Shown: positions 1 through 56,755, counted from the stretch's first letter. The stretch: 64,000 bases of DNA from Azolla caroliniana (GCA_043228905.1 JBHGNT010000003.1:22754001-22818000); one strand, 5' to 3'. A program made the numbers and translations. The notes: generated from the sequence alone by a model not told the origin.

Positions 1-199
1 AAATCTACCAATATGCATCTTTCTTTCATGCTTCTTGAGTAACACACACTACTTCAACACCATCTTCAATCACACTTGAGTTTGGTTTACCATATCTTCA
101 ACCCAAACTATCATTACACATTTATATCTCAATTGCAATGTGCAACCTAATCACAAGCTTCATTAAATTCTTCAGTGTCGAGAGTCATTAATAAACTCT

Positions 200-2800: not shown

Positions 2801-3204
2801 ACGGCTTTGGTTTCTACAATTTCTCTTTAGCTTCTATGTAGCTAAAGTTAACACATTCCACCTATCGCGTTGTTTTATGTGTATGTGTGTCCAACTAGAA
2901 GAGACGGGTTTTCACTTTGGGAGCCAAAGCTTTGTCGTCCACCTCATATAAGGTAGAGACCACCTTAAGCACCCTTATCTATGGTACGAGTTGATCCCAA
3001 TAAATGGGTTATTGATTGATGGTCTTCAAGAAGTAGACTAAGCTAAAAGTTGGATTAGCAATTGTAAAGAACTAAGTTATGCGAGCATCTTGTCCTGTCG
3101 TGGGAGCTGACTTTATGTTGTGCCAGTTGTAGAGAACCCCTCATAGAAAGTCTAAGGTTTACGTTTGCCATACGATCCTTCTAAATGTAGGATGCATGGT
3201 CAAC

Positions 3205-3312
<108 letters not shown>

Positions 3313-3679
3313 AGTGGGTGACCATATTCCATTGTCACACACCCATTGTAAGTAGTGTTTTTTACACATATTTATTTATATAATTGTGTGTTTTTACCAA
3401 AGAGAGAGAGAGAGAGAGAGAGAATGGTATTTGAGAGTTTTGATCAAATGAGGGGCATATGGGGAATTTTGTGAAGGTGAGGGGTAGTTTCTGGGAATTC
3501 CGAATTTGTACTAAACTCGTACAATAATATCCTTCCTGTGCATAAAATCAACGTACGTAGTAGGGTCTACAAGAAGAGGCAACAGAGAGCACACACTGCT
3601 CTGTTTCTCCTTCTCCTATAAAGACACGCCCACACACAGACATGGCGGTGAGGATGATGATCGCCTACCTCTCCTTCTA

Positions 3680-4974
3680 ATGGAGAGAAGCATAGGATCT
3701 CAGAACCTGCCTTCGATGTCCAAATATGGCGATATACAATCCTTCCTTATGGCATCATCATCATCATCATCTTCTTCTTCTTCTTCTCCAATCGAAGGAT
3801 TAGCGGATTCATGGAAGCTTCCGGAGATCACAGTTACACAGAGGAATGGTTCATCCTGCCAGATCTATTCTCGTTTCTCTGTTCCTGTCCCTCCAGACGA
3901 TGTCTTTGATCTCATCATTGATCCAGAGAACAAACGCGTCTTCAAGAATATCAAGGTAACTCTATAATCTATTTTTTCTTTTCTTTTCTTTTGGCTTTTC
4001 TATTTCTTTTTTCTCCGTTTCTCTGTATACGTATTGCCAGAATTGGCCCCCTGAAGTTTTTAGTTATTTCTCCAAATGCCCCTGACTTTTCTCATTATTT
4101 CCCAAAATGCCATGGCTTGATCTCCCAAGCGAAACGAGAGAGAGAGAGAGAAATGTGAGTTGACTTGTCCTCGAAATTTCGCTATTTCACCAAATGCCCT
4201 TGGGCAAACCCTAGTAGAGTGAGAGAGAGCGAGAGAGAGGAAAAGGGAAATAATTGACCATATTATTGATTGAATAACACATATCCGTTCGGGAAATTAA
4301 TAGTGTGTCTCGGAAAACAACAAAAAGTCGAGGGGTTACATTCTGGGAACTATAAATGTATCCTTGTAGCGAACAAATTCTTGTCCTTATAATCATGGGA
4401 TGTTCGTCTTAATTTATGGGCTTAGACCAACTCATCGTGTTGTCTCTAGGAAGTTAAAAACCGGAAAGTTGTCCATGACGATGGAAACAAGCAAATCGTT
4501 GAAATGGAGCAAGTGGGAAGTATCTTCTCATCCCAACTCCGAGTGGAACAAAATCGTGAGCAACATACAGTCAGTTCTCTTCCCTTTTCACTACTCTCAC
4601 TATTGTTTAGTCCTACATTTTAATCTAGATCATGAATGTTTCATAAATATACTCATTTGCAGATGGTTTTCGACCTATTGAAACAAGGGACGATGAAGAA
4701 ATTCTCAGGTTCATGGAAGATAGATCCATTCAATGCTAGTTCTAGCGATGACAATTATAATCAAAGCCCTCTCAACATTGGCCAAATAGGATCCTTAATA
4801 ACATTCAATCAAGTTGTGGAACCAGCTATTGTGACCCCTTGGCCATTGAAAGGACTTGTAAAAGGTGTCACTACAAAGTTTATTAAAGAGTTATTGGGAG
4901 ATCTACAATGTGAATGTATGCATATAGCACGATCGAAGAGAAGTGACTGTAAGTTTGACCCAAAAGGTGGCTAG
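3680..4974 (+). CDS. DUF220 / polyketide cyclase-dehydrase (START/SRPBCC-fold) family protein, 3 exons (3680-3955, 4450-4569, 4663-4974), ~235 aa
   Basis: GT-AG phase-0 introns join VPPDDVFDLIIDPENKRVFKNIK | EVKNRKVVHDDGNKQIVEMEQ... | MVFDLLKQGTMKKFSGSWKIDP...VVEPAIVTPWPL, which are typical plant DUF220 motifs. TATA-like TATAAAG at ~3617. Same exon structure as the paralog at 45647-47491. Confidence 0.85.
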
Positions 4975-5299
4975 TCTCCTTGATATCGACACAAAAAAGT
5001 TACATGTATAATAGCATATTTTTGTGATTTATATTCTTTTTTAATGTTCATTCTTTCAGCTTTAATGGAAATAGGATCTATGGATGTCACTAGATAGTCG
5101 ATACATGATGTTTTACTACTCTTCTTTGATAATGTTGAATTTTAGGTTTTCACCCATATGTTTTAATTACAAGAGTGTTTGTCAAAACATGGAGAAGTGC
5201 ATAATAGGGTAACTAAATCTTTGAGCTAGGTATCATAGAGGCATGTTGAGCTATATTATGTTGTCCATTCTTTAGTTTATTGGATCATCCCATGTTCTA

Positions 5300-8200
5300 G
5301 TATATGCATGCGTTAGTATATTTGTGAAATATTAGAATATGGGCGTAAAGCTACAAACATGAAAGGATTGACCAACATTTTTCATGGAACATGTTTCCAA
5401 GAGAACTGTAATGTTGTAGCACATTTGCGTTAGGAAATGACACATTTGTGTAGCACATACAATTAACAAAATAGTTTTCAAACAAGAATACACAAGGTAA
5501 AGAAAACTTGTATTCTCTATTGTATCATCCACAAATATGCACATTTGAACACTATATATTATCTAAAGGGTCCATGAATGATGATGGCAAGAAAATGATC
5601 TAATGGGTAAATGTTGCATCCCCCTAGAAATGATTGTGAATGAGACCAAACCTTCAAAATGATTTTTGAAACTATATATTTGTATATGTTTGGAAACCAA
5701 AACAAAGATTGCTCTTGAGTTGATGGATAAAAGTTCTTGTTGATAGACAAGTGAATAATTGTTTCAGATCTTTTGCAACAAAAAGAGATGGGTTCACTAC
5801 AAGAGATTGAATTGTCTCCTTTTCTCTAGGATCCACACTTAGTTATCTCCACAAGAACCCCATTTGTTTGAGCAATATACTTCAAACCCAAAGTTTAATA
5901 AGTTTTTTTTTTCACCATGCGTTAGATTTGGTGATTTGTTATAAATAATTTCCATGAGCTTGTACTAGAGGAGGGGGAAGAATTTTGTAGATGTAATGAG
6001 CTACTAGTGCACTGTGCAACCATCTTAATTCATGTGTTTCCTCGATTCAATTGCCAGTAAGAAAAACCTATTTAATGCTTCTATTGGCTGCATGTGGGTA
6101 AATGAAGTTTATGACTATTGGTTTCTCTTGCATGTTCACACACAATGCTTCACTCAAGATTTAAGTCACCTTGTATTTTTGTTATCCTAGTCAAGGCCTC
6201 ACATATCAATGTGAGCCTATTGTGGACATCAAGACAGAATCCCTACATTTGATATGTGTTTTGTAGGGCCAAGTAATACACTACTCAATGATGAAAGATC
6301 TTAGGTCTTTTTCTTTCGTTTTTTCCAAAAAAAGATATTAGGTCTTGTATGAGTAGCGCGCTCCATCTTTGGTTAGAATATACTTTGACTCTATGTGTTA
6401 TTGATATGCATTATTTCTACATTGTTGAAATTCTTGAAATAATAAACTATGAAATCATATGGAATTCTTAGTGTGGCCTCTTGTTTGTACCGTTCATTCT
6501 ATGTAATTAAAGTTGCTGTAGTTTGATATTTTATATTCCAATATTGCCAAACATCCATTATACTCATGGACCTCCATATACTATCATTACCTAAACTATA
6601 GCTCAAATTTAATTTTCGAACAACTTATTTGCGAGTTTTGTTATGTTAGTTGTCCCTTCCTTCTTAGGTATCATACAAAATTCCAAATCTACCTTGTCAT
6701 TCTCTAACATCACATGCCACTAACCAATTTGGGGAGTTTATCTACTTGAGAGTTATGCCATGTATGTACAACTACCAATATGTATAATTTGTCCTTTACG
6801 CTAAAGTATTTCACTAATTTATTAGACAACTCTTTCATATGAAAATTTCCAATAACCAAGTTCCACATCTAACTCGAGCTAATTGCTAATTAAGAGAAAC
6901 ATGTGTACGTCTTTGAGGAATGGGCTTGAACTTTAGTGCCTTCGCCGCTTCCTCAATGTTTACCCTATACTCAACACGACGTCTCTTCTTTTCATATCTC
7001 TAAACTAGATGACCATTAACGAAGTTTCATATTATTCCTAAAACATTCCCCATATCCAAATAGTTTCATGGATATCCAACTTTCATATCATCATCTACTA
7101 CCACATAAATTTAGACATTGATGAACTCTTTGCATGCAAGAAAACCACTATGGGAGTTGGGTGGTTTGACAAGTAGTCAAAAGAGTAGAAAATCATGAAC
7201 TAAGATGGATCGTACAATGTTTTGTGTCATCTTTTTAAGTCGAGCTTTTTACATGGAAATAATAATGGCTAGTTTATATTAGATGTCTGCATTATAATGA
7301 CGATAAAATACGAACTACTTCTAAAGGTTGTGCTTATATATTTATTATCATTCCTTCTATCCAATCACATTAGTGAACACACCCTTACATATGCAAATAT
7401 TAGTGACCTACCCTCACCTATGTTATGTGTGCATAACATTTATTCAATGTCCCAGTGCACCCATCATTTCTTAAACATACCTCTATTGTTTTTTTAATTT
7501 CCTTAGAAGCTATGGTTCATGATACAATTGGAGAACAAATGATGTATTTCCTTGTTGTGTCAAATGATTTCTTACATTATGTATGTTATTCACTTAAAGT
7601 TGTAACTTATGGCAAAATTCCTCATTAAGTTTCCTTAGGATGTTAAAGAGAGATCTATTTGTCTTGTACTTATACTTTGAAAAAAGTTTGTGGTTGTCAT
7701 TTAGTCCTATAATGAATCTATCCCTCGATGTGATGGTTGTAAATGATGCATACTTTCGAGAATGATCTTATGAATAATACTTTTTATGTTTGACAATGAT
7801 CTCATGGGGAGAGAGAGCATTTTGGTAAGGTTTTCCGACAAAGACAAGAAGATGCAATTGTCACATAGTGCAAGTTGTCCGATTTGAACCCCAATGCTCA
7901 TAGGGGTTTAGTAAAAATACTACTTACCACTTGCATACAACCTCAACTTCATGAATGGATGATATTTTTGAACATTGGGGCAATTTAGGAATCTCATAGA
8001 AAATAATGGGTATTTGGGTAATGTCATATTATTTACATATACGGAAGTAATGAATGGGAAGGTAAAGGGTTCAAACTAAAAGGTACTACTAAAAACATCC
8101 CGTTCGTTAAGTATCCAACACTCAACACACTGGTTGTGGAGATTGTGTGCCAACAGGCGAAACCAAGCTCAACCAACTAGTGCTCAACCAACACACTGGT

Positions 8201-8300
8201 TGTGGAGATTGTACGAAAAAGGGGAATAAAACAAACCAAATAGGAAACAATGTAGGTCAATGGGCAACCTAGTGTCAAAGGGAGATGCTTGCATTGTAAA
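5300..8300 (-). mobile_element. Degenerate L1-type LINE relic; boundaries approximate
   Basis: Minus ORF 5559-5750 (KNFYPS...NIYKYIVSKII...SQSFLGGCNI) resembles the RT N-terminal motifs 'NxRPIxLLNxxYKIxxK...QxxFxxGRxI'. It is followed by CIFVDDT (YADD-like) at ~5540. Confidence 0.4.
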
Positions 8301-8564
8301 AAGCTATAAAAGCCACCTTTTGGTGACTTTTGTAGCTCTTCTTGATTCTTAGGATTTCTCCTTTCTATTAGTGCACTAAGAGCTCCTTTTCTATCTCCCT
8401 AATCCTTCATTGCAGTTAAGAGAGATCAGTGTTAAGAACTAAGTAAGCTGAACCCTAATCTCCTCTTCTTGTATGGTGCTAAACTTCTATATAATAGGAA
8501 GTGATGTTAATAATATATATCTTCTTATTCTCACATTCTTGTTTATGTGTAAGAGAGATTAAAG

Positions 8565-8566
<2 letters not shown>

Positions 8567-8633
<67 letters not shown>
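8567..8633. repeat. (GA)n microsatellite
   Basis: Pure GA run; 34 bp shorter in copy B. Confidence 0.97.
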
Positions 8634-8636
<3 letters not shown>

Positions 8637-8763
8637 AATAATAATAGGTAAAAACTAAGCAACATAGAACCTCGAAGGTGCTAGGGAGGATGGAAAGACT
8701 AAGAGGGACACAACGTAAGGAACTTAAAGACATCAAAAGTTTCCTCAAGTTGAAAGATTGGGA

Positions 8764-8905
8764 GAGTCGAAAGCTCCTAAGTGTCGAATGCTCAAGGAGT
8801 CAAAAGCTCTGAAGAGTCGATGCTTCAAGGAGTCAAAAGCTTGGAGAGTCGAAAGATCCTAAGAGTTGAAAGCTCTTAAGAGTGGAATGATCTGACTAGT
8901 CGAAG
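8764..8905. repeat. Degenerate ~17-bp minisatellite (GAGTCGAAAGCTCCTAA-like, ~8 units)
   Basis: Repeated GAGTC(G/A)AA(A)GCT cores are visible directly. Confidence 0.7.
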
Positions 8906-8999
8906 GGTGCAACGTGTTCCTCTGCTTTCCCCTCTCACTCTCGCATAGTAGACCAATGATAATTGTTTAAGATTAGCCTTGGAAACAAGAGATTAGCAT

Positions 9000-11544
9000 T
9001 GTTGAGAATCAAAATCAACTTCCCTAGTGTGGGAACACACCTTAGTAATACTCAAGTGTGTGAACACCACACCTCCTAGTATAGTAACTAGTGTGTCATA
9101 GAACTGTAAAGTTCTATGAATATTTAGTAGATAGTTAAGTCTCCACCTCTTTTGTTAGTGGTGGTTGTAGTGAGAGAACATAGAGAGAACGTGACTACAT
9201 AAGCACATTCTCCTCCTCTTTGTAACAATTGGTTCATTCTTACTCCTTGTTAACGAAGTTGAAAATGCAACCGATCGACATGTCTTATGCCTTTGATCTG
9301 ACGGCGGCAAGGATTATTTCTCCGATGCCTTCACAACATACCTTCAACAAGAAGGAATTCAATGGGAATTCACCTCTTGACACACACCTTAGCAAAACGG
9401 AGTAGTCAAGCGAAAGAACCGGCATATACTCAAGGTGGCAAGGGCAATGATGAATCAGAGACATCTGCCGAAATCTTACTGGGATGAAGTGGTGAACACG
9501 ATTGTCTATCTAATGAATCAATGCACGATATTACCCCCCACGAGAAGTTCTATGGAAAGAAGTTGGAGTTATCCCACGTAAGGATATTCACCTCTATCAC
9601 ATTCATACATATTCCCGATGGAAAGCGGGAAAAGCTGGATCCAAAATTGAATAAGTGTATCCTCGTGGGGTACTCGCTCAAACAAAAGGGGTATAAGTGT
9701 TTCAATTCCTCTACCATGAAGGTACGAGTGAGTAGGGATGTCGTATTCAATGAATCAACATCTTGGTACTCGGTCGACTCAGCTCCATCCGATCCAATCG
9801 AAACCAATTTCGATATAGACTCGGAGGAGAATGATCGACTAAGGCTCACACCAGAGGAGAGTTCAATCTCAACCAGATTGAGTGGACCGCAAGAGCCACT
9901 AAGCGACCATAGCACATTGCGGCCAAGTCCGAAATCAGACAAAGGAAAGGCTAAAATGCCTTAGTATGAAGACTCAGATGAAAACGAATCGGCTCACCAA
10001 CTTGACAATGAGTATGGTGGATTGGATGTGCCTATATGAGGACAATAGGAGCCAAGAAAGCGTTAACGAAGACAAGTGAACAACCACGTCGGTCCACCTG
10101 AGAAAAGAACGTAGTTAGCCGATTTGGCTACAACGACTACATTGCATATCATTATGCATTCATGATGAAGGTGGCGACAGTCTGAGAGCTGAAAAAAATT
10201 TCCGAGCCATGAAGGACCTGCGATTGGTTGGAACAATGAATGAGGAGATGCAAGCACTCTCCATAAACGAGACATGGAATCTCATCCCCTCTTCGCTCCA
10301 TCAAAAGGCAATAGGATGCCGATGGATATTCAAAGTGAAGCATAGTGCTGACGACACCGTTAATTAGTATAAGTCCCAGTTGGTGGCAAAAGAGTATTTG
10401 TAGACACATTGGGTCAATTACGAAGAGACCTTTGCCCTGGTGGTAAAGTTGACTACCATTCGAACCGTGATCATGCTTGCATCAGCAAAATAGTGGCACT
10501 TCCATCAGATGGCGTCAAGAATGCCTTTCTCCAAGGAGAATTAGATGAGGAGGTGTACATGGTACAACCACCCGGATTCAAGTTGAGTACGCATATGACT
10601 ACTGTCTGCCGACTTAAAAAGCCTCCCTACGGCCTCAAGCAAGCACCTAGAGCTTGACATTCGAAGATAACCCAATATCTTCATCAAATCAGCTTCAAAA
10701 TGTCCAAGTACTATGACAATTCTAGGTTCATTCAGAACGACTCCAGAGGACAACTATTCATCATAATTTATGTGAACGACTTGGTCATTGGAGGAGAACA
10801 CATCAAGGATATCGAACGTACCAAGACGCTACTCTCCGGACGATTCAAAATCAAAGACATGTAGGAGTTCCATTACTTTCTAGGGATAGAAGTAATTTGG
10901 ATTCCTGATGGCATCATGATCTCCTAGCGACACTATATCCTCAATCTTCTTTACAGGTTTGGGATGATAGTGTGTAAGCCTGTCGCTACCCCTCTCGATC
11001 GAAACCTAAAGCTAGATGCTGAGTCTGGCACAAAAGAGTGTGAGTCGGCAATAGACAGCTGGAGTAGACTTGAAGCCAACTCGAAGACCAGTCCGAACCA
11101 ACTATTCGGCGATTGGAAATTGCGTTTGAAGGGGTATGTTAAGAATCAAACACAACTTCCCTAATGCGGGAACACCTTAGTATACTCAAGTGTGTGAACA
11201 CCACACCTCTTAGTATAGTAACAATGTGTGTCATACAACTTTAAAGTTCTATGACACATATTTAGTATATAGTTAAGTCTCCATCTCTTTTGTTAGTGGT
11301 GGTTGTAGTGAGAGAACATGGAGAGAAGGTGACTACATAAGCACCTTCTCCTCCTCTTTGTAATTGTTGGTTCATTTTTACTCCTTGTTAATACAATTTT
11401 TTAATTGTTTTCTGTATATCGCGTGTTCTCTCTCTCTCATATTTGACCTCCAAAGACAATAATATAATCTATCCATCTATCTCTCGACTACACACACACA
11501 TACATACACCTTCTGCTGCACAGAATCACACTCGATTCTTTACA
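9000..11544 (+). mobile_element. Internally deleted, degenerate Ty1/copia LTR retrotransposon (element 1)
   Basis: TG...CA ends with 5-bp TSD AGCAT (8995-8999 / 11545-11549). The truncated 5' LTR (9000-~9255) is fused to integrase remnants. RT remnants ([27 protein letters not shown]). Purine tract precedes the 3' LTR (11137-11544). Confidence 0.93.
11437..11481 (+). mobile_element. Extremely 5'-truncated LINE 3' end inserted in a (TC)n tract of the element-1 3' LTR
   Basis: TCATATTTGACCTCCAAAGACAATAATATAATCTATCCATCTATC matches the 3' end of the LINE at 21688-21748 and is flanked by TC repeats. Confidence 0.75.
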
Positions 11545-13055
11545 AGCATAACAAACATAAGATTAAGGAGGGATAAACGAGATTAAGTTCCAAGAAGCCC
11601 TTTTTAAGCTGAAATCGTTGGATTAAGGAAAAAAAATCCTTTGTAAGATAGGATTACAAAGCTTCAGATGATTGATTACAATGGTGGCAACTAAAATTAA
11701 CCACTAAATAAGAAACGGAAAACACAAGGTAGGATAACGTTAGAAGCTTTCAGTGATGATGTGTTGGGTGGGTCACTGACTGCGATTACTTCCGATAGCT
11801 ATGATGTCTCAGTTCGAAGTAGTGTTATTGGCCACTCTATCCTCCCTTGGAATGGCCAATATGCATGCTAGTCGGATTCCCCCCCTTTTCATACCACCAT
11901 GCAATGAGCTCTGTGATGGTAGAGACCACGGCGACCACCTAAGAAGAGGTCGAGAAGCAGAAGTGGAGGGACAATATATCTTCATGTTAATCCGAGGTCA
12001 ACCTCCAAAATGCCGAGAAGATGAATGATGAGAGTGGAAAGCTCCTTCTCCTCCGAAAAGTCGAAAACCTAAACAAAAAGAAGAGTCGAAGAAGGCCAAA
12101 AACTCGCGAGAGAGCTTCATATGCTGAAAGACGAATGATGAGCATTCAAAGCTCCTCTTGCTCCAAAATGCCAAAACCTAGAAAACAAATCAGACAAAGA
12201 AACCCTACAAAGCCAAAAATGAGGGTGCCTTATTTGCGTTTAATGTATTTATTCCTCTTTTTCTTTGTTCCTTAAATCATGATAGAGAAGCTAACTCTAT
12301 ACTCCTTGAGCCAAGTGAACTGTTCATCGACGTTGTGCCATATAACACCCAATTACTTGGTCACAAGCTTTGCAAATAGTTGTTGTACTATGATGGGTGA
12401 TTTGTTCTGTGTATTATCTAAGGCAGTACATAAGTTCCCCAAATCCTCATACAATAGATGTGAAAAAATCACCATTAAAACATATCGTTCCACAAAATAT
12501 ACATTTAGGAGTGATTTGCATCACTGTGATCGCTACTTTCATGACAATCACAACTATAGCTAATATACAATTGTGACTCTTCCTCCTCATTTTCAAATAT
12601 ACCAATCAAAGCATTGTCATTATCTAAAACCAAATGGTGTCTCCAAATTATGTGCACTAAATCAAGTTCACCTTCAATCTAAGACACCTTCTAGACTTGG
12701 TAATTTCTCTTTTATTATGTCTATCGTTGACTTCCTTAAATGTCCAACTTTTCTTAGTGTATAGTCATATCCACCAGAGTTTTGCTCGCTTTGTCATCCT
12801 TGGTCCCATGTAAATGTTTCTTTATTGTGGATGGACAAACTATCAAGATCAACATTAGATGCTTGAAGTGGTGATTGAGAACCACACGAATATTGTATAG
12901 ACCATGTAAACAACATTTCCAAGGTCCAATTACCATCGATACAATTATTTTTAAAACCGAGATTTCATTACAATCCATAAAATGTAACAAATTCATATTA
13001 AATTATTTTTTTCGGGAAAAAAACTTTACAAATGAATTCAATACATTTTCATCAC

Positions 13056-13823
13056 AACTCAATACAATGTATTGAGTTCATGTGCACAGTTATTTATCTA
13101 TTTATTTATTTTAAATTTAGAAAAAAAAACTCTACACCAACTCAATACAATGTATCGAGTTCGTGTGTAAAGTTTTCAAAATCAAAACTCAAAGCACATG
13201 AACTCGATGCATTGTATCGAATTGTGATGAAAATAGAGAGTTTTCAACATCAATTCGATACAATGTATTGAGTTCATGTTTAAAGTTAAAAACGAATTAC
13301 ACTTTAAACATGAACTCGATATATTGTATTGAATTGATGTTGAAAACTCCCTATTTTCATCCAAACTCAATATATTGTATCGAGTTTAGGCTCCTGGGAC
13401 TTCAATTCGATACATATTATCGAGTTGGTGCACCTAGGAGCCTCAACTCGATACAATGTATCGAGTTAGGGCACCTATGAGCCTCAACTCGATACATTGT
13501 ATCGAGTTGGAAGGTCAACTCCATACATCGATACATTGTAACGAATTGAGGCTCCTAGGTGTATCGATGTATGGAGTTGACCTTCCAACTCGATACAATG
13601 TATCGAGTTGAGGCTCATAGGTGCCCTAACTCGATACAATGCATCCAATTGGGACTCCACTCGATACAATGTATCCAATTGGAAACCTAACTCGCTACAC
13701 TGTATCGAGTTGAGGCTCTTGGGACTTCAACTCAATACAATGAATCGAGTTGCAGTCCAAACTTCATACATTGTAACGAATTGAGGCTCCTAGGTGCACC
13801 AACTCGATACAATTTATTGAGTT
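13056..13823. repeat. Array of ~17 palindromic 23-bp repeats (consensus AACTCGATACAWTGTATCGAGTT) with variable spacers and nested long inverted repeats
   Basis: Units start near 13056, 13139, 13201, 13252, 13313, 13364, 13404, 13445, 13486, 13517, 13587, 13628, 13658, 13689, 13729, 13760 and 13801. Confidence 0.95.
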
Positions 13824-14391
13824 TCCATTGCATATGAGCTACTCTTTGTACAATGTATGGAAGGGAGATATTCATGGACAAAACCAAGGGTTGTGTACTC
13901 TTTAGTTGTATTTAATTACCAAAAAAACCCTGAAATTAGTCTCAACAAGCTAATTTAAATAGAAACTTTAGAGCTGAAAATGAGAGATTTTAGATGGGGT
14001 TGTGATTCATAGATGATTCTAAAGTATAGGTTTTATGCCCCTTTTTCATCATTTGCAATTTTTTCTGTATTTGAAGCCCAATAATAACTTGAACCTTGGA
14101 GTAACGTTGATGTTTCTGTTAGTGAAATATTAGGTCTACTGAGCCTCAGGACGAGAGACCAATTAAAAAAATTATAATAAAATATTAGAGTTCACCCATT
14201 GAGACCACCCAAATCCGTGTCATCGCCTATCCCCAAAAAGGAAAAAAAACTATTATTTGACAATGATATTGCTAGGCAGTCTTTGGACGAGGTTGGTTAG
14301 AAGAAAATTGTGGTTGTAGTAGGAGGGGAAACCCTTGCAGATAGAGATATGACCAACTATGAGTGGGCAATGACTATGAGTGGGACTTGGC

Positions 14392-14485
14392 AATCCCTAT
14401 GAGAAGCCTCAACGTCTGATGATGCGCCTGGTGGAAATGTTCTCAAATCAAAATGATTGGATATTAGATTTGTTTTTTGGCACGG
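14392..14485 (+). pseudogene. Exon fragment of a beta-class N4-cytosine/N6-adenine DNA methyltransferase (N6_N4_Mtase C-terminal motifs X-I)
   Basis: NPYEKPQRLMMRLVEMFSNQNDWILDLFFGTG resembles 'HPxxKPxxLxxxLIxxxSxxGDxVLDPFxGSG'. It ends at the donor-like G|GTATGT (14486). Upstream sequence from 14134 has stops and a frameshift. Confidence 0.7.
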
Positions 14486-16345
14486 GTATGTTTTCAATTC
14501 ATTGTCCCAATTGCTTGATGAAACAACTTACATTGTTGAATTGTTATGTGAAACATTCTCTAAGGAAGACGAAGACAATGATGTACATACCCTCATAGCA
14601 ATTTAAACCATTTTTATCTCGATACAATTGATGTAGTTGTCACAAATGTTTTGCTTTTAATCAAATATTTACTTTGTTTTTACGGTTCTATCTTATCAAT
14701 GTTGTCTTATAGATGTTTGTTGGAATGTTCCAATTATTTGTATTATACATTGTTTAATATTTGAATTACTTGGTTGATGTGTTTTTTTTTGTTGCACGAT
14801 CTTATTATTAATTGTAAATTATGTTTTGGTCTATATTCATTCTTTACAACATTAATCTATCTACATCCATTGAAACATTTAGTTGTTTTATACAGTGTAT
14901 AATGTTCAAATGATTTGTATATGTTCTTTAACTTTGTAGCACGATCTGATTATTAATTGCACATGAGTCTATATTCATTCATTAAAGCATTAATCTATAT
15001 GCATCTACTAAAAATTTATTCCATATTCATATTTATCCACCAATCGGGTTTATAGTCCCTAAACCCGTTTCGTTTATTGTCAATCACATTTTGAATTAAA
15101 ACATACTTTTATAGACACTTAAAACTTTACAATTCTATTGTCTCTCTTATTTGAAATGTTGCTAGTAGTTGATTGAAATAATAGCTACGTGTCCATTTAG
15201 GGTTTCCAATTAATGATCCATTGTTGTAGGTGTTCTCATTCCTTGGTATGTATAGCTATTTCATGAGTACTCCTTCGTATGTTTGGGTATGTCCTCTGGC
15301 TTCGGGGTTTATGGGTGTCTCTTCTTATACACGTTTCTTATTCACCGTTGACAATTGAATGTTGTCTCGATTTTGGCTCCCAATTATTTAGCATGTTTAT
15401 GGCCGAATAGTTGTGATATATGTTTGACTGTATCTATTTTATGATAAACACAACCAAAACGAACATTTCTCAATACTTATATGCATAATTTGCTTGGCTT
15501 CTCACAAACATATACCTTCGGTATTATATCTTGTAAGATTCATTAAGGATTAATTTGAATCAATTGTAAGCACTAATATGTAGATATCACTTCCTCCTCT
15601 GGCATATACACCTCTATGGGATAGATAAACTAGCATAAGAACTATCACACTCCAGCTTACAAAAAAAAAATCTAGTTTAATAATATTGTTCCAAATCATT
15701 AACTTGTGACAGATGAGACTGCTATTGTGATATTCTTAAATTTAAATACATTGCGGAAGTGGAGATCATCGACTTTAAATATTTTCCTGAAAACTACATG
15801 TTCTCATTTAGAGACTTGTTACATATTAATAATTTAGCAAATTCTATATAGGTGGTTGATCAGGTGATACTGGTACCCAATATTTCACAATAGCCTAAAT
15901 TTGTACTACTACAAAAGGAATCTAAAAGTGGAATGTGTGATCCTTCCACTTGTGAATGCGAACATGTTAATTGGGATTAGGGAAAGTAGCTATTGAGAAT
16001 CAACCTCAATCTAACATTGTGTGTGAACACACCCTTTGACAATCTATGAGCACTCAAAGGTCAAGAGTCACACCACTCTCTACACATTAACTATGTGTCA
16101 TAGAATCATCTTCTATGATACATAATTAATGAGTTCCATATTCCCCATGAGTCAAGGTTCTAGAGAGAGAGTGGACATTGTAGTGAGAGAGTGGATATTG
16201 TAGCGAGTTAATGAAGAGAGAGGGTGTACTTCATTTTTCTTTCATCTATTTATCTCGTGTTTCTCTTCTCTCATCTCTTTCCTCTCACACATACACATAA
16301 CACACATCTCTTCCGCTACACAAGAATCATATCTGATTCTTTACA

Positions 16346-16356
16346 TGGTATCAGAG
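16346..16356 (+). promoter_or_regulatory. Primer-binding site (tRNA-iMet) of element 2
   Basis: TGGTATCAGAG directly follows the LTR end ...TTTACA. Confidence 0.9.
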
Positions 16357-19300
16357 TGGTTTGGTAGCTCGATCTAGCCCATCCGCGTGTGTTGTGCTTT
16401 ACGCCGACGTTCAAGAATAACCGGCTCATTGCTATCATAGTGCGACTACATAGCTCGTGTTCGAGAGAGAAGGAAAAGAAGAAGGAGATCTTCATTGACA
16501 ATGAATGCTCAAATGGGGAGCGCTCTCCGTAGCGAGAAGTTGGATAGAAACAACTTTGCATCTTGGGAGTACAAGATGCACCAATACCTTGTCAGCCAAG
16601 GCTATTGGAGCTACATCAAAGGAGCACAAGAAAATCGACCGACCCGAAAGATGCTGACTCAACATGGGAGCAAACAGCAAGCCGAGTGATGTATTGCTTG
16701 GCGACATGTGTTCATGATCACATGCTCGGCTACATTCGAGAAGCCGAGACACCGAAGCAAGCGTGGGAGAATCTACGGAAGATTTTCACGGCCAACACCA
16801 CTGCAAGAAAGCTTCAACTCCGCCAAGAGTTGAATAATATCCAACAAAGGGATATGTCCATCACAAGCTACACCTTGAAGATCAAGGAGCTTTGTGACTC
16901 GCTCAACTCAATAAGCGTCAATGTGGACGATGATGAGATGGTGCAAATATGCCTCAATGGCCTTGCACCACAATTCGACGCGATGAGGACCGTCATACTA
17001 GCATGAGAGAATCCTCCCTCTTTCTTCAATATTCAATCCATGTTTTTGGTTGAAGAAAACCATGTTTGAATGAGGAGCAACGCCTCGGAAGGCCACATGC
17101 TCTACACGCATTCGAACGGAGGAAAAGGACGTAACCGAGAAAGAGGCTAATTCGGCCAAGGACGAGGCGGACGAGGTCTGACTTACGAAAAGAACTCCCA
17201 ATTTCAGCAACAAGATGGAAGCCATCAAGGAACCTTCGGAAGAAGGGGGAGCTTCCATTCCGGTCCGAGCCGACAAACCTCGATCGAATGCGGATATTGC
17301 GGAAAAATCGGCCACCATGCACAAGAGTGTCGAACGAAGAAGCGTAAGTCGGCTTCCACAAGCTGATAACTCACCTATTACGCCTCAATTCCGACTATGA
17401 CGACCATGACGGAATGTTCGTGATGAGACATAGAGTAAATTCTATGTCGCCCTCTACTTCGAATAGTGTCTCTAGTTCGGAAGACGTATGGTTCGTCGAC
17501 TTCGATGCCTCGAATCATATGACGTCTCATCAAGAATGGTTCTGAGAACTTCGAGAGCTAGACTGACCCGGCTATGTCGTAACCGGAGACGACACTACTC
17601 ATCTGATTCAACACATCAACAATGTTCTATTTGGCAAAGAAGGTAACCAAACTTATATTAAGAATGTCTTGCATGTACCAACCTCCGTCGGCCAAATTGT
17701 TGAGCAAGGGATGAAAGTTTGATTTAATCAAGGCGGTTGCTTCATTGAGAAAGAGGGTCAACTCATCACTCGTGGACGAAGAGAGGGCCAAATGTTCATT
17801 CTCGACTCACACGAGATGAAATCGGCCATGTTTGCAAAAGGCACCAAAACCGGCACTGACATAGAGTTGTGGCACAAGCGAATTGGCCACATCAACCTCC
17901 AAAAGCTCAAGGCAATGCAATCGAAAGGAGTGGTCATTGGACTCCCAACCTTCAAAGAGAAAGAGATTGAAGGCGTATGTGCAGCATGCCAATTCGGCAA
18001 GTGACATCAGAACCCGTGTCCGAAGGAGAGGAACATGCACAAAGGTGTACTTGACGTTATTCATTCCGATGTATGGGGACCTACTCAAACGGCTACATTC
18101 GGCGGATGTCAATACTACGTGGCCTTCATCGTTGACTTCTCCAGGCACACCTCGATCTACCCCATGTGGCAAAAGAGCTAAGTGTTCAGACACTTCCAAA
18201 AATTCAAGAGTAGAGTCGAAAAGGAAACATGTCGACATGTAAGATGTCTTCAGTCCGATGGAGGAAAAGAATACTTCTTCGAAGAATTTTCGGCTTTTCT
18301 TTGAAAAGAAGGAATTCGGTGAGAGTTTTCGTGTCGACATATACCACAACACAACGAAGTAGCCAAACGCAAAAATCGACACATCCTCGAAGTAGCACGT
18401 GCCATGATGAACGAAAAACACATGTTGAAGTCATATTAGGCCAAAGCAACAAATACTGCCATCCACCTCATGAATCAGTGCACGACATCCGAAGTGCATG
18501 AGGTTACCCCGCACGAGAAGTTTTTCGGAAAGAAGCCGGATCTATCACATGTTCGGATATTTGGCTCCATTGCATATGTGCACATCCCCGATGAGAAGCG
18601 ACAAAAGCTCGACCCGAAGTCAGAGAAATGCATCCTTGTAGGATACTCACTTGAGCAAAAGGGGTACACGTGCTATAACCCCTTGAATTGGAAGGTTCGT
18701 GTGAGTCGAGATGTAGTCTTCGAGGAATCGACATCATGGTACGAACCCGAGCCGACTCCCCCTAAATCCTTTCTAGTCAACCTGGAATCCGCCGAACAAG
18801 AGATAGAAGATAGAGATCGACTCAAACACATGTTCAAAGAAAGTCCGATTACGACAAGGCTTAGTGGGCCACAAGAGCCTCCGAGCGACCAAAGCACATC
18901 TCGTCCTAGTCCAAAGATGGACAAAGGTAAGGAGAAAATGTCGGAATATGAAGATGATTACTTCAACGACAACAAATCGACTCACTCGCTTGACAGTGAG
19001 TTCAATGGCTTCGATGTACCTATCATGAGGACACCTGTCGTAAAGAAAGCCATTGCCATGACAAAAGAAAAACTCTGTCGCTCCACCCATGAGGAGAATC
19101 TTGTTAGCCGATTCGACTACAACGATTATATGGCATACCACTATGCCTTTATGATGAAGGTGGCGACAGTTCGAGAGCCGGAAAGTTTTTCGGAAGCAGC
19201 CAAGGATCCATGATGGGTCGAAGCAATGAACGAGGAGATGCGGGCACTATGCAAGAACGAGACATGGGATCTTGTTCCCCACTCACCGCACAAGAAGGCA

Positions 19301-20581
19301 GTTGGCTGCAAATGGATTTATAAGGTGAAGTATAATGTCGATGGCTCTGTCAACCGCTACAAAGCTCGAGTTGTAGTGAAAGAATACGCACAGACACATG
19401 TAGTCGACTACAAAGAGACATTTGCCCCGGTGGCAAAGATGATGACTGTGCGGACCGTGATTGCACTCACAACAACGAAAGGGTGGCATCTCCACTAGAT
19501 GGACATCAAGAACGCCTTTCTTCAAGGTGAATTAGAAGAGGAGGTGTACATGGTACAACCACCCGACTTCGAATCCAGCATTCATCTGAAAGTCGTCTGC
19601 CAACTCAAGAAGCCTCTTTATGGGCTTAAGCAAGCACCGCGTGCTTGGCATTCGAAGGTAACGCAATATCTTCATCAAATCGGTTTTTGAATGTCGAATG
19701 TCGAAATCCGACAACTCCCTCTACGTATGAAACGACTCTAGAAGCTCGATTGTCATCATCCTATACGTGGATGATCTGGTTATTGGAGGTGAGCATTTAA
19801 TCGACATCAACAAGGTGAAATCCCTTCTCTCCAACAAATTTGAGATGATTGACATGAAGGAGCTCTGTTACTTCCTTCACATCGAGGTAATTCAGACTCC
19901 AGCCGACATCATGATCTCTTAACGACACTATATCCTCCACTTGTTATACAAGTTCGAGATGACTAAGTGCGAATCTGTGGCAAACCCTCTCGATCAAAAC
20001 CTCAAACTAGACACTGACTCCGGCACAAATGAGTGCGAGCCGACTCAGTTTCGACAACTGATCGAGAGTCTCATTTACCTCACGATCACTTGACCCGACT
20101 TGAGTTATCCGGTCGGCCTCCTTAGCCAATTCATGCAAACTCCACGAGATATCCATTTGGATTGTGCTAAGCAAGTTTTACTATACCTGAGCGGCACAAT
20201 GAATTGTGGTATTCTCTACGAATCGACCACACCAATTCGACTCGAAGGGTACACAGATGCCGACTGGGCCGGCTACAGGGCCGATCGACGATCGACCTTC
20301 GGATTTGTTTTCTCCCTCGGTAACGGAGCAATTTCGTGGAGTAGAAAGAAGCAGCCGACTATTGCTCTTTCTAGCAAAGAGGCCGAATACAAGGGTGCAA
20401 CCATGGCTGCATGTGAAGCCTAATGGCTCAAGAGGATTTTAAAGGATCTAGGCGTTCCCATCGAGTATCCAACTCCCCTTTAACTCAACAACATGAGTAG
20501 TATTTATCTGACTTGGAACTCGGTGTTCTGCGCACGCACAAAGCCTATCGAAGTGCACTATCACTTTATTCGAGAGCGCGT

Positions 20582-21914
20582 TGTCGTGAAGATTTCCAGC
20601 TATGGTGAGAAAACCGGGTGGAATGGGCAAAGTTGGCAATGTGCACCGTGTGCACATATACATTCAAAAATATGTATAAAATAAAAAGGGGATTTATCCC
20701 ACATTGTAACGTCCTTCCCTCCTTGGACTATAAAAGGAGGGAGGGGTCTCTTGTAAAAGGGTTGCCCATTTTGAGTTAGGAGGGTATACTGTTACATCTA
20801 AGGTATAATAGTCTTGTCTCTTCCTTTTACTTTCCTTTAGGGTTTGGTAGCTTTCTTCTTCTTCTTTCTTTTGGATGTTCTTCTTGGAGTGGAGGTTTAG
20901 GGTTTCTCTCGGTTCCTATCTCTCTTCTCGATTAAGGTTTTGTCCAGTTTAGATCTCGTATGCTTTGAGGGTTCCCGTTCGTAGCTCTGACTCTTGTGCA
21001 AGACCCCAATCACATAGGCAAGCTCGAGTGCTCCTCGACTAGCGGCTTGGTAGCAGAAAATTGTTGTGCTTCGGTAAGAAGGACCGTCTCAGCGCTAGGC
21101 TTCCACTCGCGTAGGCGAGCCCGAGTGCTCCTCGACTAGAGCTTGCTTGTGGACAACTGTTGTATCTGTTCGGTATTGGACCGGCTCGAAACCGACGTTG
21201 TAATTTCGTGGTCTTGTATATACATTCACAAGAAGTTGTGCATATCTATATCTCTATTGGTGTTAGGTGCGTATCTTTCTTTTCGGCTTCTGTACATAGG
21301 AAGCATGTGTTGAGTCTCTCTCTCTCTCTCTCCCTCTCTCTCTCTCTGCCATTCGAACCATTGCTTCCATCCGACTTAGCTCACATGCATTGCAATGTGA
21401 AACAGGGCGTTGGGGCATAAGTGATGAGAGTGGTCGGCTATCCACACTTTACCCTAAACAAGTTCGCGAGTCTGAGTATCACACTTTGATACAATGCTCT
21501 GCTTTTGATCATATTTGACCATGCTTTCCACATCTCTTCAACCGAGCCCAATCTTTGCATGAATTCCTCTCACAACCACAATGTGCACTCTCGATTGCAA
21601 CATTCATTGGTAAAGTTCTTGAACATCGAGAGTCACTACTCACTTTCACACGTATCACGTGAAATGTAATATTTTTGGTCTCATAGGTCATATTTGACCT
21701 CCAAAGACGATAATATAATCTATTTACCTATCTATCTATCTATCTATCTCTTCTGTTCGATAGCATCCAGTATGTGTCCGGAATCTCTCTAGTTTGTGCC
21801 ACAGCCAGCACGACCGGTTCTGGAGAGAATCAATCTCCTGATATCCATCTCTTCCTGGTCCGTGACCCCGGTGGTCCCTCCCGATCCAACACATGCATGC
21901 AGATTTCCGCGACA
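20582..21914 (+). mobile_element. Solo LTR (unassigned, possibly Gypsy) inserted in the RNase H of element 2
   Basis: TGTCGTGAAG...TTCCGCGACA termini and 4-bp TSD GCGT. Removing it restores the frame FIRERV-QARDVDL. TATAAAAGG at ~20729; internal repeats CGAGTGCTCCTCGACTAG. Confidence 0.85.
21348..21748 (+). mobile_element. 5'-truncated RTE-X-like non-LTR retrotransposon with a (TATC)n tail, inserted in a (TC)n tract
   Basis: Translates RTIASIRLSSHALQCETGRW...VRESEYHTLIQCSAFDHI*PCFPHLF (LINE ORF2 C-terminal SSHxLxxETGRW / ExExHxLxxC motif). Followed by a short 3'UTR hairpin and TATC repeats. (TC)n lies at 21315-21347. Confidence 0.82.
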
Positions 21915-22285
21915 GCGTACAGGCCAGAGATGTTGACCTTCAACACATCAACACGAATCTTCAGACAACCGACATCTTCACCAAGGCCCTAGGAGCGGAC
22001 AAGCTTCGGTAATTCATGCCAGACCTTGGATTCACGATCCCTGACTTGTCAAGCTTGAGGGGGAGTATAAGAGAGAACCGGATACCAACCGAAGCGAACA
22101 TCAACCAAAAGGAGCCGACCCAAGTTGAGCTTGAGGAGATGTGTTGAGAATCAAGCTCAATCTAACATTGTGTGTGAACACACCCTTTGAGAATCTATGA
22201 GCACTCAAAGGTCAACAGTCACACCACTCTATACGCATTAACTATGTGTCATAGAATTATATTCTATAACACATAACTAACGAGT

Positions 22286-22605
22286 TGTTGGGAATTCGGT
22301 CCCTCCGGATGGGATGTCCGGAGATGAATGACGGCAAGCCCGGTTGCGGTTACGGAACCGGAGGATGAAGACCCGGCTACGGAGCCGGATGATGAAGGCC
22401 CCGGCTACGGAGCCGGATGACGAATGTACCCGGAGAGAGATCCGGATGCGGGGACATAGTTGTGAATATGTTTGCCAAGGGCCCTTGAGGCTATATTTGT
22501 AAATAGCCCGAAAGTCATATGTGTATAAATATGACTTAGGGCAAACAGTTTAGTGACTGTTACTCATTTTTCTGGTTTTCCACTTAGAGGGAGCTAAGTG
22601 AGCAG

Positions 22606-22648
<43 letters not shown>

Positions 22649-25600
22649 GAAGAGGTCGTTGCCTCTGTGTATTACCGCCGCCTGTGGCGAAGACAGTGAG
22701 CTCAAGGGTTGTTGCCTTGTAGCTTCACCATTGTACATCTCTGCTCATAGTGATAGTTGGAGTTGGAGGACTCCCGTGGTTTTTCCCATTTAGGGTTTTC
22801 CACGTAAAACATCCTGTGTACTCTGCTCTCCATTGTCTTCGTGCATTCTGTATTTCCTGTTTTCTGTGAGTTGATCCTATTCCTCGGTTGTGGCCGAGCT
22901 CAGTCTTTAACAATTTGGTATCAGAGCGACGGTAACACAGAAAATGGAAGGCGGCGGTAGTGGGCCTCCGGGCATGATGGTGTTGAACTCACAGAACTAC
23001 GCCGACTGGAAGATAAAGATGGAAGACCTTCTCATCGTCCGAGACCTGTACGAACCGATCGACAATGCCGAGATACCCAAGGGGGTAATAGAGTCGGAGT
23101 GGAAGCTCCTGAACCGGAAAGCCGTAGCGACGATCCGGCAATATGTCGATGTAAGTGTCCTGCAACATGTGGCGAACGATACGAACGCCTATGAGATGTG
23201 GCAGAAGCTGTCCGGACTGTATGAGAGGAAGAATGCTCTGACCCGGACCTCCCTGATGAGGAAGATAGTGAATCTTAAGTACCGGGACGACGAGAGCATG
23301 GTCGAACATGTCAGCACGTTCATGGGATTCGTGAACCAGCTTGCGGCGATCAAGTTCCCGTTGGATGACGCAATGCAAGCCATCATGCTGATGTGTACCC
23401 TTCCGGAGAGCTGGGAGAACTTGGTAGTTACTCTCAGCACCTCCTGTAAGGAAGAGAACTTGTCTTTACTAACGGTAAAGACAAGTATTCTAAATGAAGA
23501 GGCGCGTCGGAGAGATAAAGAACCGGCCTCCGACTCGAAGGCGCTGCTTACCGAATCGGAACGGGGAAGACAACGGAACCGGAGTCCGCAAAGACGGGAA
23601 AAGTCGGGGACACGGTCGCAGTCGAGGGGAAGACCTACATGCTTCTACTGTGGGAAGCCGGGGCACTTCCAGAAGAACTGTCGGCATTTCCGGAAAGACA
23701 ACGGAACCGACGGTACCGATTCGAAGAAGTCACCGGACCGAAACGGTGCATACCGGGGAGCCACGGACCGGCGAGGTCCGGATCGGCGAGGGCAGGACCG
23801 GAAAGGAACGACGGCACTCGCGGCAAGTGAAGAAGAGATAATGCTCATTACCGAAGAGAGGGAGCTGAACCTTGCCGGTGAAGAGATGACCTGGGTAGTC
23901 GATTCCGGAGCGTCGTTCCACCTGACCCCGGAGAAGAAATACTTCTCATCCTACACAGCCGGTGAGCACGGCTGTGTCCGGATGGGAAATGAAGGTACAT
24001 GTCGGATTGCCGGCATAGGAGACGTGTGGCTGATGACATCGACCGGATGCAAGATGCTGCTGAAGGATGTCCGACACGTTCCGGAGGTTCGATTGAACCT
24101 GATTTCGGCCGGGAGGCTAGACGATGAAGGCTACACGGGTAGCATCCGGAACGGTGTCATGAAGTTCAGCAAAGGGAGCCTGATAGTGGCTCGGGCCCGG
24201 AAAGTCAACACACTGTACCTTATGAATGCCTGGTTGTGTCCGGAGGAGTTGAACGTGGCAGCCGACACTGCCGGTGAGCTGTGGCACAAGAGACTGTGCC
24301 ACATGAGTGAGAAGGGGATGAAGAGGCTTGCAGGAGACAACCTTATTCCAGTGAAGCATGTGCACCTGGAGAAGTGCACCGATTGCCTGGCCGGTAAGCA
24401 GAACCGAACCTCCTTCCACTCAAGGCCACCGACGAGACGTAGTGTACCATTGGAGTTGGTACACACTGATGTGTGTCAGGTAGAAACGAAGTCACACGGC
24501 GGAGCCCAGTACTTCGTGACATTCATTGATGACCACAGCCGGAAGCTGTGGACGGCACCGTTGAAGACAAAGGACCAAGTGTTGTGCGTCTTCAAAGAAC
24601 TCCACGCAAGAGTGGAAAGAGAATTCGGCAAGAAGCTGAAAGCGATACGAGCGGATAACGGAGGAGAATACCGAGGGCAATTCGAGGAGTATTGCCGTTC
24701 GATGGGAATCCGGCTCGAGTTTACTGTGCCGAAGACGCCGGAACTGAACGGGCTGGCCGAGAGAATGAACCGGACCATAATGGAGAGGGTCCGGAGTATG
24801 CTGGCGCATGCGAAATTACCCAAGGGGTTTTGGGCTGAGGCAATGTCGACGGCGACATACGTGATAAACAAATCACCCTCAGTACCTTTGGACGGAGACA
24901 CGCCGCAGAGAGTGTGGACCGGTAGGGAAGTATCCTACCGGCATCTGAAGGTGTTCGGGTGTCTCGCATATGTGCATGTGGCAAAGGACCGGAGAGGAAA
25001 GCTAGATCCAAAGACCCGGCCATGCATATTCCTCGGTTACGGCGATGACGAGTTCGGCTACCGAGTATGGGACCCGGTCGACAAGAAGATATTCCGGAGT
25101 CGTGATATCATCTTCATGGAGGACAAGACATTCGCCGACTGGGAGTCGGAGAAGAAGATGAAGAGCTCCAAGTCGACCGGTGAGGATCAACTCTACGAGG
25201 AGCAGTCCCGACCGGCAAGGGACCGGTTAGCACTCGAGGATCCGGCCGAAGACGGTGAAGAAACAGAACCGGCCGAGGAAGATGAAACTGATACCGGAAC
25301 CGGCCCCGATCCCAAAATGGATTCGGAGGAAGAAGAAGCGGAAGAGCCGGTTACCGAAGCTCCGGAACGGAGATATCCTCTAAGAGAGAGAAGGGCCCCC
25401 CGCAGATTTCCGGAACCAGAGCACGTGCTGCTAACCGACGAGGGGGAGCTGGAGAGTTTTGAAGAAGCAAAGCTTGACACCCATAGCCGCAGGTGGTTAA
25501 GTGCCATGCAGGAGGAGATGGATTCCCTACATGAGAACCACACATATGAACTTGTGGAGTTGCCGAAAGGAAAGCGGGCACTTCGAAACAAGTGGGTGTT

Positions 25601-26223
25601 CAAGCTGAAACCGGGAGATGCCGAAAACCCCCCGAGATACAAAGCCAGGATCGTGGTGAAGGGGTTCCAGCAGAAGAAGGGCGTCGACTACGACGAGATA
25701 TTTGCCCCGGTAGTGAAGATGACCTCCATCCGGATGGTGCTGAGCATAGCGGCAAGCATGGACCTCGAGGTAGAACAGATGGACATGAAGACGGCATTCC
25801 TTCACGGTGATCTCGAAGAAGAGATCTACATGCAGCAACCGGAAGGATTCGAGAAGAAAGGGAAGGAGCACCTGGTATGCCGGTTGAAGAAGAGCCTTTA
25901 CGGACTGAAGCAGGCTCCCCGGCAATGGTACCGGAAGTTCGACTCTTTCATGACCAACGAAGGGTACCACAAAACGCAGTCCGATCACTGCGTGTTTGTG
26001 AAGAAGTTCGAAGGGGGAGACTTTCTAATACTCCTCCTGTACGTGGACGACATGTTGATCATCGGACGGGACCAGGTCAAGATACGGATGCTGAAGAAAG
26101 CGCTTCACCGAACCTTCTCAATGAAGGACCTAGGTCCAGCGAGGCAAATACTAGGGATGCACATCATCCGGGACCGGAAGAAGAAGCAGTTGTGGCTGTC
26201 ACAGGAGAAGTACATGACAAAGG
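22286..26223 (+). mobile_element. Young Ty1/copia element (element 3; Tork/Tnt1-like) inserted in the element-2 3' LTR
   Basis: LTR 22286-22912 (TG...CA), PBS TGGTATCAGAGC at 22916, and an uninterrupted gag-pol ORF. Confidence 0.96.
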
Positions 26224-51200: not shown

Positions 51201-51403
51201 AAATGGGTTATTGATTGATGGTCTTCAAGAAGTAGACTAAGCTAAAAGTTGGATTAGCAATTGTAAAGAACTAAGTTATGCGAGCATCTTGTCCTGTCGT
51301 GGGAGCTGACTTTATGTTGTGCCAGTTGTAGAGAACCCCTCATAGAAAGTCTAAGGTTTACGTTTGCCATACGATCCTTCTAAATGTAGGATGCATGGTC
51401 AAC

Positions 51404-51467
<64 letters not shown>

Positions 51468-56721: not shown

Positions 56722-56755
<34 letters not shown>

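Follow-up and report, generated by a model that had tools for sequence, protein, structure and literature searches.

Decayed copy of a Sola1-like DNA transposon in Azolla caroliniana with a phased palindrome array and the remnant of a putative ParB-methyltransferase gene

A stretch of 64,000 nucleotides from Azolla caroliniana (GCA_043228905.1 JBHGNT010000003.1:22754001-22818000), called the window below, contains an array of palindromes next to a methyltransferase fragment. Judged by comparison with intact relatives, positions 12541-15968 of the window are a dead, internally deleted copy of a many-copy, cut-and-paste, Sola1-like DNA transposon. Intact relatives are about 8 kb long and combine AACAC terminal inverted repeats (TIRs) with a DDD transposase. 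A preliminary description of the window had proposed a decayed plant transposon copy with an intron-containing methyltransferase and an array, and the intact relatives were found to carry all of these, plus the transposase and the TIRs. In the relatives the methyltransferase is fused to a ParB fold, a domain that is not visible in the window sequence.

A scan of metagenome contigs yielded 137 relatives, the best 80 of which were analyzed (L-numbered loci). In each of the 12 loci that extend more than 2.5 kb upstream of the ParB motif, the transposase was arranged head-to-head with the ParB-methyltransferase gene. It was encoded in these long loci by a single open reading frame (ORF) of about 900 amino acids on the opposite strand, and the gene with the ParB and PF01555 parts lay within the TIRs in 12/12 of them, L008 being complete. 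All four transposases tested matched DUF7869 (E 1e-51 to 1e-53), and the Atlas neighbors of the transposase were DUF7869 clusters. We take DUF7869 to be a Sola-type transposase. The motifs IDGMD, QLDN, and HIDQ were intact in 12/12 loci, and their aspartates presumably form the DDD catalytic triad.

Thirty-six element ends began with A[AC]CA, followed by C in 31 of them. TIRs of 33-34 bp were present at both ends of L031 (7.6 kb apart) and L056 (6.0 kb apart). Sola transposons are defined by a DDD transposase and a 4-bp target-site duplication (PMC10741241; here and below, statements on published work refer to the accessible passages of each source). A 4-bp duplication, TGTT, flanked L026, and none was seen at L031, L040, or L056, where collapsed contigs may join the ends of different copies. 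At position 3280 of L003, the last intron of the methyltransferase gene was interrupted by an element of another subfamily. The corresponding empty site was present in L002, L004, and L005 and is evidence of transposition; it also led us to reject a reading in which AA|TT is targeted without duplication.

In L008 the ParB-methyltransferase gene consisted of six exons, and removal of five GT-AG introns gave one frame of 975 amino acids with no internal stop. In the encoded protein, ADIPY (residue 691) precedes DLFSGTG (residue 852). A short first exon (MSSKK..RSDS) spliced in frame across the palindrome array in L005, L007, L008, and L022, with the array located in the first intron. In the window, the methyltransferase peptide NPYEKPQRLMMRLVEMFSNQNDWILDLFFGTG starts at 14392, 569 bp beyond the array (about 0.6 kb had been estimated), and ends as described at an intron donor, G14485|GTATGT. 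This GT was found in the same phase in 40/41 loci, and in 37/41 the next exon began 77-109 bp further on. For the 14485/14486 junction, which had been proposed for checking, a match was found at the homologous junction of a relative: a contig of run X12 joined L008 positions 7258 and 7352, skipping exactly the 93-nt intron homologous to that at 14486. Run X12 is RNA by guess, bears the species label of both the best DNA holder and the window, and supplied this contig at a depth of 3.6. Its contigs did not reach the methyltransferase exon of the window copy, and no RNA run was listed as containing the window sequence; we take neither as evidence.

A protein search of 1.84 billion representatives returned 16 homologues at E ≤0.001. 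Named members from this and later searches, known here as proteins only, came from Ginkgo (Gb_37443, Gb_10123, and three more), Adiantum nelumboides, Ceratopteris richardii, and Chara braunii; most of the others were unnamed metagenome ORFs. In Chara braunii, the gene models P0075 and P0076 had two tandem ParB-methyltransferase units whose motifs read D[FL]PYG. A DIPYG methyltransferase encoded on a 9.4-kb contig (P0031 and P0071) belongs to this family but lacks the ParB part and appears to be intronless. The viral contig collection contained no relatives of exon 2, of the DIPY exon, or of the 23-bp palindrome. In genome contigs, the DIPY exon had no close prokaryotic counterpart, and only general phage methylase PHROGs matched, which singles out no donor of the methyltransferase. 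Matches to prion and antibody entries were dismissed as chance.

The window frame 14380-14487 (36 residues) matched Pfam PF01555 (N6_N4_Mtase) over profile positions 163-193 with 34.5 bits and E 2.7e-08 (cut-off 26.7 bits), which bears out the family first assigned to the peptide; Ginkgo P0009 scored 65.7 bits. A catalytic DPPY/SPPY motif had been reported as missing, and it is absent from the window, but motif IV of the relatives is DIPY in 45/47 loci (D[FL]PY in Chara) and not DPPY or SPPY. It aligns with DPPY of CcrM. The serine found at the first position of SPPY in the N4-cytosine type was not present, this position being aspartate in 45/47 loci. A predicted structure of the Ginkgo methyltransferase (predicted local distance difference test (pLDDT) score 67.8; its alignment included two bacterial rows) was nearest to the N6-methyladenine (6mA) enzymes CcrM, MboIIA, BceJIV, and RsrI, with PvuII and the bdelloid N4CMT behind. 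When the profile was limited to plant rows, since the two bacterial rows had inflated an earlier CcrM score, the values were 5.6e-09 for CcrM, 0.018 for PvuII, and 0.096 for N4CMT. The initial assignment to N4-methylcytosine (4mC)/6mA methyltransferases was right as to family, with the adjustment that the enzyme is nearer to 6mA writers than to PvuII or the bdelloid 4mC enzyme. The product would fairly probably be 6mA and not 4mC.

Exon 2 is predicted to carry the ParB N-terminal fold. Its AlphaFold model (mean pLDDT 70.9) matched ParB/Noc in Foldseek (E 2.7e-05), and all 11 matches at E ≤0.001 were ParB or Noc chains. Residues 245-375 of the model superimposed on Caulobacter ParB with a Z score of 10.3 and a root-mean-square deviation (rmsd) of 2.0 over 98 residues. 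For residues 225-536 of P0044, the nearest Atlas clusters were fungal DUF3723 proteins (score 0.97). DUF3723 is named in Starship papers, according to a literature listing, and may be a ParB-like transposon accessory domain.

At ≤3 mismatches, the palindrome AACTCGATACAWTGTATCGAGTT had 27 matches in the window, 15 at 13056-13823 and 12 in a second array at 61177-61761, and none in 100 shuffles. At ≤4 mismatches the first array contained 17 units, in agreement with the original count; the two TCGA sites ascribed to each unit were kept in only five of the 17. The constant part across relatives is CGAT[AG]C-N3-G[CT]ATCG, not TCGA, and one clade of relatives has CCGA in place of TCGA. With this core, which was defined on the counted loci themselves, and one mismatch allowed, at least one unit was found in 36/40 loci with more than 500 bp upstream, and at least three in 24/40. 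The loci contained 192 units in 50.7 kb of upstream sequence versus 12 in 240.8 kb downstream, 10 of the latter belonging to the element nested in L003. This linkage places the array inside the transposon as first supposed, but not subterminally: in the relatives it is central and intronic, 3-4 kb from both element ends. Neither of the tests set beforehand, on linkage and on methyltransferase identity, refuted the proposed reading. A flanking AA, not forced by the pattern, was kept in 370 and 360 of 402 half-sites. Central and flanking bases vary by subfamily, following the tree; coevolution of palindrome and protein is not claimed, because kin share labels.

The 16 spacings between units in the window (30-83 bp) were all close to multiples of 10.3 bp, and their phasing (R 0.93) was equaled in 0/2000 random sets. 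A set of 178 spacings from the loci, from which L003 was excluded and gaps above 130 bp were dropped, had peaks at 30-33, 40-43, and 50-53 bp; phasing over its 31 distinct values gave a p of 0.003. The spacers of L022 are constant in length but not in sequence, a pattern that favors selection on the geometry of the array over plain tandem copying. Just upstream of the array, the AG|GT donor lay 15-25 bp ahead of a conserved motif, TGTACGGACA, in eight of the 10 loci with this motif. TGTACGGACA is invariant, non-palindromic, and confined to a single strand. It was found close to the start of the first intron, 53-145 bp ahead of the array (L007:3731, L008:3605, L022:3660, L026:4035, L030:3595, L037:6138, L040:6667, L045:3552, L060:792, and L070:3683), and is a candidate for a second cis element.

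The ratio of nonsynonymous to synonymous substitution (dN/dS) was determined in ungapped blocks; stop-bearing blocks and pairs below 55% identity were dropped, synonymous divergence (pS) was restricted to 0.15-0.65, and the pairs are not independent. Median values were 0.048 for the motif IV block (65/818 pairs), 0.083 for the X/I block (79/763), 0.036 for ParB (57/1883), and 0.045 for the transposase (2/55), most of the remaining pairs being saturated. On these values, the methyltransferase is conserved as tightly as the transposase, the pattern of purifying selection.

Both the transposase and the ParB-methyltransferase genes are clearly many-copy. DNA runs X2 and X3 covered 30/30 bins of L008 at 80% likeness, and the summed depth in X2, which is not a copy number, was ~1,200-18,000 over the coding parts of L008 versus ~51 on a single-copy flank. 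Contig depth over the window was several hundred times single-copy at 12502-13002 and 13170-13336 (~450-fold at the latter) and 10-40 times at 13500-15840. The high depth of the two segments suggests that there are shortened, non-autonomous derivatives in which the transposase tail or a portion of the array was kept. The ratio of observed to expected CpG was 0.35-0.59 in the non-array parts of the window copy versus 0.71-0.97 in the coding parts of L008, and the window copy looks to have decayed under host methylation. In the array, C/G transitions were not more frequent at CpG (8/60) than at other C/G positions (8/60).

What is left of the C-terminal third of a Sola-like (DUF7869) transposase occupies window positions 12541-12949 (minus strand). 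It is interrupted by stops, frameshifts, and an internal gap, and the catalytic core is gone; tblastn against the L007 and L022 transposases gave 42-70% identity (E 1e-16 and 1e-7 to 1e-9). The 17 palindromic 23-bp units at 13056-13823 are, from the intron position in relatives, what remains of intron 1 of the ParB-methyltransferase gene. On the plus strand, the splice acceptor AG of this intron (14132-14133) takes the same position as in L005, L007, L008, and L022. The decayed start of exon 2 follows at 14134-14372, with stops and one frameshift, and ends in ...GGETLADRDMTNYEWAM; it matched the N-termini of P0029, P0044, P0059, and P0062 at 39-60% (tblastn, E down to 1e-9). At 14373-14382 an internal deletion junction connects this remnant, with almost nothing between, to the motif X/I exon; ~2.5 kb were lost there, among them the ParB domain along with the catalytic DIPY exon. 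The two points flanking the junction are 2453 bp apart in intact L008 and 2513 bp apart in L011, which indicates that the window copy was internally deleted. P0007, on a different contig, shares both this junction and the read-through of the intron, so the deleted form is present more than once.

Beyond the junction, the 3' end of exon 5 (14383-14485, plus strand) encodes motifs X and I, the S-adenosylmethionine (SAM)-binding part of a beta-class amino-methyltransferase (Pfam PF01555), with 77-80% DNA identity to the best-matching loci. It is followed by the conserved phase-1 donor GT at 14486-14487; the last methyltransferase exon beyond it had no match in the window. The right subterminal region (15361-15934) was 68% identical to L014 over 624 columns and leads into the right TIR at 15935-15968, whose minus-strand sequence is 5'-AACATGTTCGC (AACAC in the family consensus). 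The left TIR and the first exon were not found in the 64-kb window, and catalytic motif IV and the ParB domain are absent from the window copy. This copy can make neither the transposase nor the ParB-methyltransferase protein and, because the left end is lost, is probably immobile. A second copy of the relic lies at 60662-63906, inside a duplication of ~48 kb. It is 98.8-99.4% identical, and its array is ~180 bp shorter; the first array contains ~180 bp with an internal inverted duplication (13445-13640) that are absent from the second copy.

From the anatomy of the element and the linkage, splicing, predicted folds, purifying selection, and phasing described above, we infer a mechanism that we judge to have slightly more in its favor than against it: the ParB-like part would bind the palindromes, and the enzyme would methylate the DNA or promoter region of its own element, probably at adenine. 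Each 23-bp palindrome would be bound by a dimer, as in ParB/parS and Noc/NBS, and the whole-turn spacing would align the bound dimers on one face of the helix. The tethered methyltransferase could then write 6mA or 4mC over the shared divergent promoter beside the array. The mark or the bound protein may shield this promoter from host silencing by 5-methylcytosine (5mC), or may set the expression of both genes, following the logic of VANDAL/VANC. A sliding clamp driven by cytidine triphosphate (CTP) is not expected for the ParB-methyltransferase, because the arginine of GxxRxxA appears to be replaced. More tentatively, and with somewhat less than an even chance, streptophytes from Chara to ferns and Ginkgo may harbor a transposon-borne, self-addressed 6mA system with a phased parS-like intronic array that counters 5mC silencing.

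Several points weigh against this self-marking model and the anatomy on which it was built. The 80 loci all derive from a single block of ENA metagenome assemblies and include many collapsed repeats, so that they do not represent independent hosts, and the core by which palindromes were counted had been defined on these loci. The 4-bp target-site duplication was seen in one of four two-ended contigs, and the evidence for splicing is one contig of low depth (3.6x) from a run guessed to be RNA. Because motif IV, DIPY, departs from the canonical [DNSH]PP[YFW] (PMC4738411), methyltransferase activity is not assured. In the exon 2 model, the helical residues 380-536 after the ParB domain align only loosely to ParB DNA-binding domains, at an rmsd of 6-14. 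The CTPase site also looks altered relative to the ParB motif GxxRxxA (PMC11229316), with GGSHSAEAR in 52/77 loci, no arginine in the other 25 either, and GGGH[TC]REAR in Chara, as matched by eye and not on the model. The array is also near the start of the transposase, and binding, methylation, and silencing are predicted.

The departures in DIPY and in the arginine patch of ParB would suit a pseudo-enzyme that binds the array without methylating and whose occupancy alone would shield the divergent promoter or repress it. We consider this unlikely, as the aspartate and tyrosine of motif IV and the SAM motif DLFSGTG are almost invariant under strong purifying selection, and D[FL]PYG is kept in the Chara homologues. 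Alternatively, the array could be bound by the transposase as an internal enhancer of synapsis, with the methyltransferase acting elsewhere or without sequence targeting. The start of the transposase is a few hundred base pairs from the array, and non-autonomous copies retain the array, as seen in the window copy and in the contig depth at 13170-13336. The position of the array within an intron of the methyltransferase gene, distant from both ends, and the dyad form of its units, of the kind bound by ParB-fold dimers, argue against such a role, as does the finding that red algal ParB accessory genes adjoin arrays of inverted repeats in elements whose transposase superfamily is unrelated (10.1101/2025.02.11.637652). 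Binding by the transposase is quite doubtful on this balance.

An enzyme that writes 4mC, as Marchantia DN4MT1 or the bdelloid N4CMT does, with a use to the host in transposon silencing or in marking sperm DNA, would share the Pfam family and would find a CpG in every half-site; some N4-cytosine enzymes, moreover, have aspartate in motif IV. It is nevertheless improbable. DN4MT1 has TSPPY versus DIPY in the transposon family, solved N4-cytosine enzymes rank below the 6mA enzymes, and the gene lies within TIRs in many diverged subfamilies and not at a single host locus. The negligible remaining case is an unrelated palindromic satellite that came to lie beside a methylase fragment by chance in a region between copia insertions. 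The relic of the transposase, the array, the acceptor, the exon remnants, and the TIR have the order and orientation seen in intact elements, and the linkage of the array to the gene (36/40 loci) and to the transposase (12/12 loci) refutes chance adjacency.

The layout of the element resembles that of Sola1-1_Ec32 from the brown alga Ectocarpus, a Sola1 transposon with an opposite-strand gene for a ParB-like domain and an N4-cytosine/N6-adenine methyltransferase, for which self-binding and self-modification were proposed (PMC12477816). The two proteins have 1104 and 975 amino acids, respectively, and both termini start with AAC (AACCG in Sola1-1_Ec32 and AACAC here). The algal element is larger, at 21.5 kb with 282-bp TIRs compared with ~8 kb and ~33-bp TIRs here, and its main text mentions no palindrome array (PMC12477816); the likeness drawn here is one of layout. 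In Bostrychia, Plavaka (EnSpm) elements encode ParB-like accessory proteins (PAG2/PAG3; best match 7BNR, as here) next to tandem inverted-repeat arrays, with a PF01555 methylase in the same element (10.1101/2025.02.11.637652). There, however, the ParB part and the methylase belong to separate genes, the former fused to a 2-oxoglutarate oxygenase and the latter to a SET domain, the transposase superfamily is another one, and the passages seen contain no helical phasing. The Azolla element is, by its predicted parts, a land-plant member of this kind of self-marking transposon already proposed for algae. No land-plant report of a ParB-methylase transposon was found in the literature within reach, which excludes most subscription papers and Repbase; the supplements on the Ectocarpus and Bostrychia elements may cover arrays or plant homologues.

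Arabidopsis VANDAL elements likewise combine an accessory protein, VANC, with repeated subfamily-specific target motifs in their own element, but the elements belong to the MULE superfamily, and VANC is not a methyltransferase and causes loss of 5mC, a function shown by experiment (PMC5735166). Bacterial ParB-parS and Noc-NBS (PMC11229316) share the ParB N-terminal fold and repeated palindromic sites; here GxxRxxA is unmatched, the protein is methyltransferase-fused and spliced, and no ParA gene was seen in the element. Marchantia DN4MT1 and bdelloid N4CMT, the latter with introns, are beta-type PF01555 enzymes that derive from bacteria and are encoded in the nuclear genomes of eukaryotes, but they are 4mC-writing host genes (TSPPY in DN4MT1) without a ParB fold and are not transposon-borne (10.1101/2021.02.12.428880, PMC8885841). 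Prokaryote-type adenine methyltransferases are also carried by DAM-bearing DIRS and long terminal repeat (LTR) retrotransposons; these differ as retrotransposons with DAM of the NPP type, and the accessible text refers to no ParB, Sola, or land plant (10.64898/2026.05.21.726589). In land plants, few N6-adenine methyltransferases are given in the part of the survey at hand, which does not list the ParB-methyltransferase clade (PMC4738411).

Outside the relic, the ~48-kb duplication is direct and comprises window positions 1-16062 and 48200-64000 (98.8-99.4% identity), with a gap of 100 N at 26630 between the copies. It is a tandem duplication or else a haplotype that was left uncollapsed. Three copia-type LTR retrotransposons lie at 9000-11391, 15993-22286, and 22486-26629, the third with a 1106-amino-acid open gag-pol frame running toward the assembly gap. 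Together with the genes of the window, these copia elements mark the host as a plant. An ORF of 640 amino acids at 43082-45004 is multicopper-oxidase-like, recognized by its HxH motifs alone. Spliced paralogues of one host gene form an inverted pair at 3515-4984 and 45637-47619.

ParB-guided self-marking by transposons has already been published for algae, as a proposal. The transposon family described here comes with full gene models, many copies, and a precisely delimited candidate binding site that varies naturally, and the spliced contig bears the species label of the window itself. Because multicellular lineages are considered to have lost 6mA (10.64898/2026.05.21.726589), a site-specific writer in a plant would be a clear exception. 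If the model is true, the family would provide an enzyme-defined 6mA mark in land-plant nuclear DNA and possibly a programmable epigenetic tool.

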